Assembly (NCBI RefSeq): GCF_003334765.1
Contig: NZ_QOWT01000010.1
Length of the DNA: 64,000 bases
Source of the DNA: Escherichia coli
GTDB taxonomy: Bacteria; Pseudomonadota; Gammaproteobacteria; Enterobacterales; Enterobacteriaceae
Strand: one strand, 5' to 3'
Positions 43,394 to 44,852 of this stretch are shown here, piece by piece; positions within the stretch are counted from its first letter, which is position 1, and each line of letters begins with the position of its first letter. The notes under the pieces were generated by a model, which saw only the letters and a list, made by a program, of their open reading frames with translations, was not told the DNA's origin and ran no database searches. The translations under genes were made by a program, and so were the position numbers.

Positions 43394-43402
43394 TGATTTC
43401 TC

Positions 43403-43433
43403 GCGCGGGCAATCTTGCCCGCGCTTCTGCTCT
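43403..43433 (+). terminator. Probable intrinsic terminator after ppiA
   Basis: Hairpin gcgcgggcaa-tc-ttgcccgcgc followed by a T-rich tract. Confidence 0.45.
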
Positions 43434-43497
43434 CCCGGCGTAACCCGGATTTGCCGCTTATACTTGTGGCAAATGGACACGTTCAGGGAGGCATCAA

Positions 43498-43665
43498 GTG
43501 AAGAAACTCACCGATAAGCAAAAGTCCCGTCTCTGGGAGCTTCAGCGTAATCGTAATTTTCAGGCCAGTCGCCGTCTTGAAGGCGTCGAGATGCCTTTAG
43601 TCACTCTTACTGCCGCAGAGGCTTTAGCGCGCCTTGAAGAGCTGAGGAGTCACTATGAGCGATAA
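43498..43665 (+). CDS. yhfG: Small protein upstream of fic, putative Fic-associated antitoxin-like partner
   Basis: Not in ORF track; GTG start, 55 aa ([20 protein letters not shown]...); stop overlaps the fic start by 11 nt. Confidence 0.7.
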
Positions 43666-44257
43666 ATTCGGCGAAGGGCGCGATCCGTATCTTTATCCAG
43701 GCCTTGATATCATGCGTAACCGGCTGAACATCCGCCAGCAGCAGCGGCTGGAACAGGCCGCTTACGAAATGACGGCGCTGCGTGCTGCGACCATTGAGCT
43801 TGGTCCGCTGGTGCGCGGTTTACCGCATTTGCGAACTATCCATCGCCAGCTGTATCAGGATATTTTCGACTGGGCAGGGCAACTGCGTGAAGTTGATATT
43901 TATCAGGGTGATACGCCGTTCTGCCACTTTGCTTATATCGAAAAAGAGGGCAATGCCCTGATGCAGGATCTGGAGGAAGAAGGTTATCTGGTTGGCCTGG
44001 AGAAAGCGAAGTTCGTCGAGCGGCTGGCGCATTACTATTGTGAAATCAACGTGCTGCATCCCTTCCGGGTGGGAAGTGGTCTGGCACAGCGGATCTTCTT
44101 CGAGCAACTGGCGATTCATGCCGGATATCAACTGAGCTGGCAGGGTATCGAAAAAGAGGCCTGGAATCAGGCAAATCAGAGTGGGGCAATGGGGGATCTC
44201 ACCGCACTGCAGATGATATTTAGCAAAGTGGTAAGCGAAGCCGGGGAATCTGAGTAA
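43655..44257 (+). CDS. fic: Fic-family protein
   Basis: 200 aa; Fic-like motif [12 protein letters not shown], which departs from canonical HxFx(D/E)GNGRxxR. Confidence 0.9.
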
Positions 44258-44288
44258 AATAGCGCGGTTCTTTTGTACCGGAGCCGCC

Positions 44289-44852
44289 ATGATCCTGCTT
44301 ATAGATAACTACGATTCTTTTACCTGGAACCTCTACCAGTACTTTTGTGAACTGGGGGCGGATGTGCTGGTTAAGCGCAACGATGCGTTGACGCTGGCGG
44401 ATATCGACGCCCTTAAACCACAAAAAATTGTCATCTCACCTGGCCCCTGTACGCCAGATGAAGCCGGGATCTCCCTTGACGTTATTCGCCACTATGCCGG
44501 GCGCTTGCCGATTCTTGGCGTCTGCCTCGGTCATCAGGCAATGGCGCAGGCATTTGGCGGTAAAGTTGTGCGCGCCGCAAAGGTCATGCACGGCAAAACC
44601 TCGCCGATTACACATAACGGTGAGGGCGTATTTCGGGGGCTGGCAAATCCACTTACCGTGACACGCTACCATTCGCTGGTGGTGGAACCTGACTCATTAC
44701 CAGCGTGCTTTGACGTGACGGCCTGGAGCGAAACCCGCGAGATTATGGGGATTCGCCATCGCCAGTGGGATCTGGAAGGTGTGCAGTTCCATCCAGAAAG
44801 TATTCTTAGCGAACAAGGACATCAACTGCTGGCTAATTTCCTGCATCGCTGA
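44289..44852 (+). CDS. pabA: Aminodeoxychorismate synthase, glutamine amidotransferase component
   Basis: 187 aa; class I GATase catalytic Cys in GVCLGHQ. Confidence 0.95.

Follow-up and report, generated by a model that had tools for sequence, protein, structure and literature searches.

The yhfG-fic locus of Escherichia coli is a class I Fic module whose Fic protein is probably not an AMP-transferase

We examined a 64,000-nucleotide stretch of Escherichia coli DNA (contig NZ_QOWT01000010.1, assembly GCF_003334765.1; hereafter the window), in which two same-strand (+) open reading frames (ORFs) at 43.4-44.3 kb, yhfG and fic, constitute the chromosomal ecficA(yhfG)-ecficT(fic) class I Fic module of this species; fic is the founder of the Fic family. 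Taking identity, architecture and activity together, it is highly probable that this assignment holds and that Fic (EcFicT) is not a transferase of adenosine monophosphate (AMP). From the pattern of conservation we infer that Fic is a re-purposed enzyme and not a decaying toxin or a relic, because the catalytic histidine, the anion nest, R146 and the gate supplied by YhfG (EcFicA) are invariant while the residues specific for adenosine triphosphate (ATP) have given way to a conserved hydrophobic set. The degenerate motif, the antitoxin partner, the structure and the phylogeny are all found in a 2016 publication, and in this sense the feature was already known. An earlier reading of the locus made from the letters alone (the sequence-only reading) had asked whether this Fic is an AMPylase, uses another substrate or is only regulatory, which is the same question that the literature leaves; the structural view of the active site that it called for already exists as published crystal structures. 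The protein that gave the AMPylation field its name apparently does not itself AMPylate, and the role of E. coli Fic is a 40-year-old question.

Identity and architecture of the module

The names fic and yhfG proposed from the letters were confirmed by Pfam, NCBIfam and PDB matches. Fic belongs to the FIC-domain proteins (Pfam PF02661, residues 58-152, E=1.5e-13) and scored 430 bits against the NCBIfam equivalog NF007672 (cut-off 181), while YhfG belongs to the YhfG family (PF10832, E=5.4e-24) and scored 127 bits against the equivalog NF007573 (cut-off 77). Construct changes aside, both proteins align over their full length to the chains of PDB 5JFF and 5JFZ, which are the EcFicT(G55R)/EcFicA and EcFicT/EcFicA(E28G) complexes of Stanger, Harms, Dehio and Schirmer (PLoS One 2016; PMC5033356); the locus is thus the same as that of K-12 EcFicT/EcFicA (UniProt P20605). 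By this match to the solved chains 5JFF_A and 5JFZ_A, Fic has the FIC fold with the catalytic His opening the signature loop. Differences from these chains were restricted to residues 2 and 27, together with the engineered G55R of 5JFF: the crystallised Fic has His27 and carries S2G plus a tag, whereas the window encodes Arg27 (codon 27, 43733-43735). Since Arg (60), His (48), Tyr (3) and Asn (2) all occur at this position among 113 representatives of the clade described below, the R27/H27 difference is, judged by this spread, a neutral polymorphism.

The features that make up the module are the following.

43498..43665, + strand: yhfG (ecficA), 55-residue class I Fic antitoxin-like protein with a GTG start (ORF, profile and PDB matches, selection)
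43567..43584, + strand: inhibitory-helix motif S24-R-R-L-E28-G29, of the form [S/T]xxxE[G/N], with the E28 codon at 43579-43581 (translation)
43655..43665, + strand: 11-nt overlap ATGAGCGATAA, from the fic start codon through the TAA stop codon of yhfG (ORFs)
43655..44257, + strand: fic (ecficT), 200-residue FIC-domain protein with an ATG start (ORF, profile and PDB matches, selection)
43817..43819, + strand: codon Gly55 (GGT), site of the historical fic-1 (G55R) allele (codon read; invariant in 113/113 representatives)
44057..44092, + strand: degenerate FIC signature loop H135-P-F-R-V139-G-S141-G-L143-A-Q-R146 (translation, clade survey)

Class I membership was judged by the FicTA classification of Engel et al. 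2012. YhfG is small, is encoded as a protein of its own immediately upstream of fic on that strand, and carries an [S/T]xxxE[G/N] motif. A physical complex is documented by the presence of both chains in 5JFF and 5JFZ. In the crystal structure, Ser24 and Glu28 of YhfG clamp Fic R146, with a salt bridge between E28 and R146 (PMC5033356). Stanger et al. likewise described yhfG as a FicA antitoxin homologue with the canonical motif and its complex with Fic as 1:1 and stable, with a melting temperature (Tm) of 63 C (PMC5033356). The call of a toxin-antitoxin-like Fic module made in the sequence-only reading therefore agrees with both the S24xxxE28G29 motif and the 1:1 co-crystal with Fic. Its description of yhfG as a GTG-initiated ORF of 55 codons that ends 11 nt inside fic was also accurate, the shared nucleotides being 43655-43665. 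Within the family, Fic falls into the EcFicT-like enterobacterial subgroup, as seen from its score above the NF007672 cut-off, the hydrophobic L143 at the position of the first motif arginine and the location between ppiA and pabA; this is ‘subgroup 3’ of Stanger et al. (PMC5033356).

A 1.1-kb query around the locus showed 100% DNA identity to E. coli K-12 MG1655. The locus was found in 5426/5426 complete E. coli genomes, with a median of one copy per genome and the annotated gene order ppiA, yhfG, fic, pabA. Among the 5429 matching places in these genomes, a single one belongs to a plasmid record, and the locus occurs twice in at least one genome; these are isolated exceptions to an otherwise strictly single-copy chromosomal distribution.

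A degenerate signature loop held to hydrophobic residues

The canonical AMP-transferase motif reads HxFx(D/E)GNGRxxR, whereas codons 135-146 of Fic (CAT CCC TTC CGG GTG GGA AGT GGT CTG GCA CAG CGG) depart from it at three positions, exactly as the sequence-only reading had stated: the acidic residue at position 5 is replaced by Val139, the Asn at position 7 by Ser141 and the first arginine at position 9 (R1) by Leu143. The His at position 1 (H135) and the second arginine at position 12 (R2, here R146) are retained. In canonical enzymes the acidic residue serves in Mg2+ binding and R1 in binding of the ATP beta-phosphate. A misread frame is ruled out, since the translation and the Pfam, NCBIfam and PDB matches all agree on the frame, and the motif as first read survived this test. 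Against the VbhT equivalog EcFicT reached 138 bits for a cut-off of 800, which likewise speaks against a canonical AMPylase.

We then surveyed close Fic proteins in 120 cluster representatives, all at 79% identity or above. The loop always read HPF(R)xGxGx(A/V)QR. Position 139 was occupied by L, I, V or F only, position 141 by S (69) or N (44), and position 143 by L, M or I and never by R. Invariant in 113 representatives were H135, G140, G142, Q145 and R146 of the loop as well as T40, G55, Y67, F71, E79 and Y83. Among remote relatives (50%-identity representatives), a canonical (E/D)GNGRxxR was present in 112 of the 129 with a readable motif, and the degenerate loop would therefore have been derived within the enterobacterial clade. 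On this comparison it is a derived, clade-specific trait that is held to hydrophobic residues and is not drifting. The same picture emerges from Stanger et al., who noted a small or medium hydrophobic residue in place of R1, a hydrophobic one at the D/E position and Ser for Asn in about half of the clade, and who listed 43 subgroup-specific positions, many of them lining an extended hydrophobic groove that they proposed as the site for an unidentified substrate (PMC5033356).

One variant of the loop was seen on a syntenic ppiA-...-pabA contig, where an in-frame deletion joins yhfG and fic into a single 200-aa protein (P0122, L001:1011-1613). It is made up of roughly the first 28 residues of YhfG followed by Fic from about residue 45, and its loop, HPFFVGSGRAQR, keeps R1 with Val and Ser present. 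This fusion could represent either an intermediate in evolution or a pseudogene.

Conservation of the inhibitory motif in YhfG

Among 120 cluster representatives of YhfG, S24xxxE28G29 was present in 114 and E28 in all but one (119/120). Losses are on record. In E. albertii TW07627, ecficA has a stop codon (PMC5033356). In addition, a K-12-like 22-kb chromosomal contig (Logan SRR25548099; its L011:2001-2760 corresponds to 43498-44257) differs from the window at a single position in 4168 nt, A43580G, which converts YhfG Glu28 to Gly as in the crystallised mutant, with fic intact; a strain without the inhibitory glutamate is therefore viable. These two cases argue against uninhibited EcFicT being a lethal toxin.

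Single-chain fusions of YhfG and Fic were also predicted in E. coli-like assemblies. In P0001 (252 aa, 15 members) a frame shift affects the final yhfG codons (...EELRVTMSDKF...), and P0005 (233 aa) has an internal deletion. Their layout resembles the class II architecture, in which the inhibitory helix is N-terminal. These fusions probably reflect errors in assembly or sequencing, or else rare mutants.

Purifying selection and ancestry of the module

Selection was assessed by comparing E. coli, Klebsiella, Leclercia and Salmonella. The ratio of nonsynonymous to synonymous substitution rates (dN/dS) was 0.06-0.18 for yhfG and 0.04-0.12 for fic, and the variable sites at the three codon positions numbered 14/13/45 and 44/30/153, respectively. 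Klebsiella uses ATG to start yhfG and the other three genera use GTG, the ORF being intact throughout. Because of the low dN/dS, the third-position excess and a start switch that keeps the ORF, both genes are, as far as this comparison speaks, translated and under strong purifying selection. Accordingly, the treatment of yhfG as a genuine gene in the sequence-only reading stands: its dN/dS, third-position bias, GTG/ATG start switch with preserved ORF, conserved Shine-Dalgarno sequence and crystal structure rule out a chance ORF. A decaying toxin-antitoxin remnant is similarly ruled out by the dN/dS of fic, its presence in every complete E. coli genome and the invariant catalytic-site residues. 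An antisense 156-aa ORF within fic (43820..44290, - strand) is mechanical only, the codon-position variation fitting the + frame of fic. A further syntenic contig (L002, P0129) was left out since its DNA looks globally C-to-T converted; its translations contain many stop codons, are rich in F, L, Y and C, and have the appearance of bisulfite-type or damaged data that found their way into a public assembly.

The synteny ppiA-yhfG-fic-pabA-argD recurs in Klebsiella, Leclercia and Salmonella. Stanger et al. found every close homologue to be enterobacterial and in synteny between ppiA/B and pabA, and from this concluded vertical inheritance in the Enterobacteriaceae (PMC5033356). Two canonical-motif relatives of about 40% identity have an upstream ORF of 53-56 aa with SxxxEG that overlaps by 1 nt or 11 nt, and lie in unrelated neighbourhoods, one of them adjoining a HigB-like toxin gene; the distant canonical relative L009 has the same 11-nt overlap, ATGCGAGATAA. 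Because canonical-motif relatives share the small upstream ORF and the overlap, the class I architecture, overlap included, is by this comparison ancestral, and what is new is confined to the loop and to fixation on the chromosome.

A probably re-purposed active site

No auto- or target-AMPylation was detected for EcFicT, even with EcFicA-E28G, and its structure suggests no ATP binding although the adenine pocket and the anion nest are retained (PMC5033356). Its mechanism was still called elusive in a 2026 paper (PMC13327609), and our full-text literature search on EcFicT, and on yhfG since 2017, returned no later functional assignment.

A working scheme can be drawn from these elements. In stationary phase, transcription of the bicistronic yhfG-fic unit between ppiA and pabA depends on RpoS (PMC2907692). 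Ribosomes terminating at the yhfG stop codon would go on to translate fic by virtue of the 11-nt overlap and the internal Shine-Dalgarno sequence, so that both proteins would be made together. Glu28 of YhfG plugs the Fic active site in a tight 1:1 complex. Fic keeps the FIC fold, His135, the Gly140/Gly142 anion nest and R146, with the hydrophobic V139 and L143 standing in for the Mg-binding acidic residue and the R1 that binds the ATP beta-phosphate. Under this scheme it would still perform His135-dependent phosphodiester chemistry, in a remodelled hydrophobic pocket gated by YhfG. As to the reaction, we lean tentatively towards the hypothesis of Stanger et al. that EcFicT equips a target with a group taken from some donor that is not ATP (PMC5033356). 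A non-ATP donor is favoured because of the constrained hydrophobic groove and of the gain-of-function nature of fic-1, the G55R allele crystallised as 5JFF, which causes cAMP-induced filamentation (PMC5033356).

Changes of this sort have precedents. In the Doc kinase and in the phosphocholine transferase AnkX, an altered signature loop switches the donor or the reaction while the His is retained (PMC5033356); their motifs differ, however, from that of EcFicT, and there is no close sequence relationship. Like EcFicT/YhfG, VbhT/VbhA of Bartonella schoenbuchensis (3SHG, 3ZC7, 3ZCB) is of class I FicTA architecture, has a salt bridge from the antitoxin Glu to R2 and carries an N-terminal DPY segment. 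VbhT, unlike EcFicT, is encoded on a plasmid, possesses a canonical motif as well as an extra BID domain, and AMPylates GyrB/ParE.

Several points weigh against the re-purposed enzyme. Neither a substrate nor a product or target of Fic has so far come to light, and the word enzyme is itself an inference. The 120 clade representatives are all at least 79% identical, so that invariance at single residues is only moderately informative, though dS is saturated between genera. Two steps of the scheme depend on our own interpretation of signals described in the last section, namely the assignment of a TATACT hexamer to the published fic promoter, and translational coupling, which is plausible from the overlap and the internal Shine-Dalgarno sequence. 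Finally, a 2024 review states that EcFicT expression strongly inhibits growth of E. coli (PMC10886550), which fits a conventional toxin; the 2016 structural paper, by contrast, had called EcFicT ‘toxin-like’ with no detectable activity (PMC5033356).

Alternative readings of the active site

Fic-YhfG could be a non-catalytic pseudoenzyme or regulator that binds a protein or a metabolite, possibly tied to p-aminobenzoate (PABA) or folate through the linkage to pabA. More than 40 years without any Fic activity being found would be readily understood in this way, and the genetic setting fits as well: the gap between fic and pabA is a conserved spacer of 31 nt with no predicted + strand terminator, the order ppiA-ficTA-pabA is kept in all close homologues, and ‘Fic (PABA or folate)’ is the entry for the gene product in a review table (PMC5650638). 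Our own literature search for a link between fic and pabA or folate returned only matches to ‘fractional inhibitory concentration’. However, the linkage to pabA alone is uninformative on mechanism. Moreover, the clade shows no variation at His135, the Gly-x-Gly anion nest or R146, and YhfG has retained its site-plugging Glu; a gate kept on a dead site is unexpected. We consider a purely regulatory Fic rather unlikely.

The sole new lead of this study, which was not proposed in the 2026 paper on Fic-1-AntF (PMC13327609), is that EcFicT has lost AMP transfer and that the EcFicT-YhfG complex acts only as an ‘eraser’, hydrolysing AMP or another nucleoside monophosphate off protein by means of His135 and YhfG Glu28. 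It is built by analogy on Fic-1/AntF of Pseudomonas bijieensis 2P24 (8WT0; PMC13327609), a class I pair like EcFicT/YhfG and, for Fic-1, the closest solved canonical-motif homologue of EcFicT. Fic-1 aligns without gaps to EcFicT residues 1-196 (E=2.2e-49), which gives identical numbering for H135, 139, 143 and R146, as for S24 and E28 of the antitoxins, and its structure superposes on 5JFF with a root-mean-square deviation of 0.9 A (PMC13327609). Fic-1, with its canonical HPFREGNGRAQR, is toxic and modifies GyrB by AMPylation, and deAMPylation is carried out by its complex, whereas EcFicT has V139, S141 and L143 and no detected AMPylation. The substitutions E139A and R143A abolish AMPylation by Fic-1 but not deAMPylation by the complex, which requires only H135 of Fic-1 and E28 of AntF (PMC13327609). 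EcFicT differs from the Fic-1 motif at these same positions 139 and 143 yet keeps H135 and R146, and YhfG keeps S24 and E28; the residues of a Fic-1-AntF-type deAMPylase (Fic His135, antitoxin Glu28, in a stable complex) are thus present and conserved in EcFicT-YhfG. The very stable 1:1 complex (Tm 63 C) and the retention of the adenine pocket and anion nest (PMC5033356) are in keeping with such a role, as is a core, vertically inherited locus, unlike an addiction module.

Other observations are difficult to accommodate. Only E28 of the small partner remains in EcFicT-YhfG from the negatively charged cleft of Fic-1-AntF, three of whose four acidic residues (Fic-1 E29, E36 and E139; PMC13327609) correspond to Q29, A36 and V139 in EcFicT. 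Positions 139 and 143 are constrained to hydrophobics and co-vary with A36 and Y67 to give a new groove, which looks like the gain of a ligand site and not like simple loss, and an eraser does not easily account for the gain-of-function filamentation of fic-1. For class II Fic proteins, a common view is that the acidic motif residue holds the metal on which deAMPylation depends, and K-12 is not known to have a cognate Fic AMPylase whose modification would have to be reversed. On balance an eraser appears unlikely, and slightly more doubtful still is its elaborated form, an RpoS-induced housekeeping complex descended from a FicTA pair and performing only the reverse reaction on nucleotidyl-tyrosine or -threonine. 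If true, such a complex might restore GyrB/ParE or other proteins after their modification by endogenous AMPylases or by FicT toxins of foreign origin.

That the locus is a conventional FicTA toxin-antitoxin pair, in which free EcFicT would AMPylate GyrB/ParE or another target and stop growth with YhfG as the labile antitoxin, is very improbable despite the class I architecture, the inhibitory motif, a structure close to VbhTA, the growth inhibition reported in review (PMC10886550) and the resemblance of fic-1 filamentation to the effect of the GyrB-AMPylating Fic-1 (PMC5033356, PMC13327609): R1 and the acidic residue, both needed for AMPylation by Fic-1 (PMC13327609), are absent from EcFicT, no AMPylation is seen even with the E28G antitoxin (PMC5033356), genomes with an ecficA stop codon or E28G coexist with intact fic, the locus is core and syntenic and not mobile, and the score against the VbhT equivalog is far under its cut-off.

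Expression signals and neighbouring genes

The re-purposed enzyme, like its alternatives, would be expressed from signals that we could place around yhfG and fic.

43403..43424, + strand: GC-rich hairpin past the ppiA stop codon (GCGCGGGCAATCTTGCCCGCGC), upstream boundary of the yhfG-fic unit (fold, conservation)
43459..43464, + strand: TATACT -10 hexamer in the conserved block TTGCYGCTTATACTTGTGG, candidate sigma-S-dependent fic promoter (sequence, conservation)
43485..43491, + strand: Shine-Dalgarno sequence AGGGAGG for yhfG, 6 nt ahead of the GTG (read from sequence)
43644..43649, + strand: Shine-Dalgarno sequence GAGGAG for fic, in the 3' end of yhfG, 5 nt ahead of the ATG (read from sequence)

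The hairpin folds as RNA with a free energy (dG) of -21.4 kcal/mol, its GCGCGGG...CCCGCG arms are kept in Klebsiella, Leclercia and Salmonella, and it is likely the ppiA terminator. The TATACT at 43459 is the sole occurrence in 43394-43700 and lies in the TTGCYGCTTATACTTGTGG block, which is conserved in the four genera. The fic promoter is described, in a review citing Utsumi 1993, as having TATACT for -10 and no -35 (PMC5650638), and yhfG-fic transcription is RpoS-dependent (133/111-fold; PMC2907692); the hexamer at 43459-43464 would correspond to this published -10. A sigma-70 promoter scan upstream of yhfG found none, as can be understood for a sigma-S-dependent promoter published without a -35.

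Around the yhfG Shine-Dalgarno sequence, CAGGGAGG is invariant in the four genera. For fic, the equivalents in the other genera are AGGAG or GGAGG. The 11-nt overlap is identical in Klebsiella, Leclercia and Salmonella, and the junction CACTATGAGCGATAA is unchanged across all four genera.

Downstream, the spacer between fic and pabA (44258-44288) contains a GGAG Shine-Dalgarno sequence for pabA and is conserved in the four genera. Since this spacer is short and conserved and terminator prediction on its + strand gave none, pabA is probably co-transcribed with yhfG-fic.

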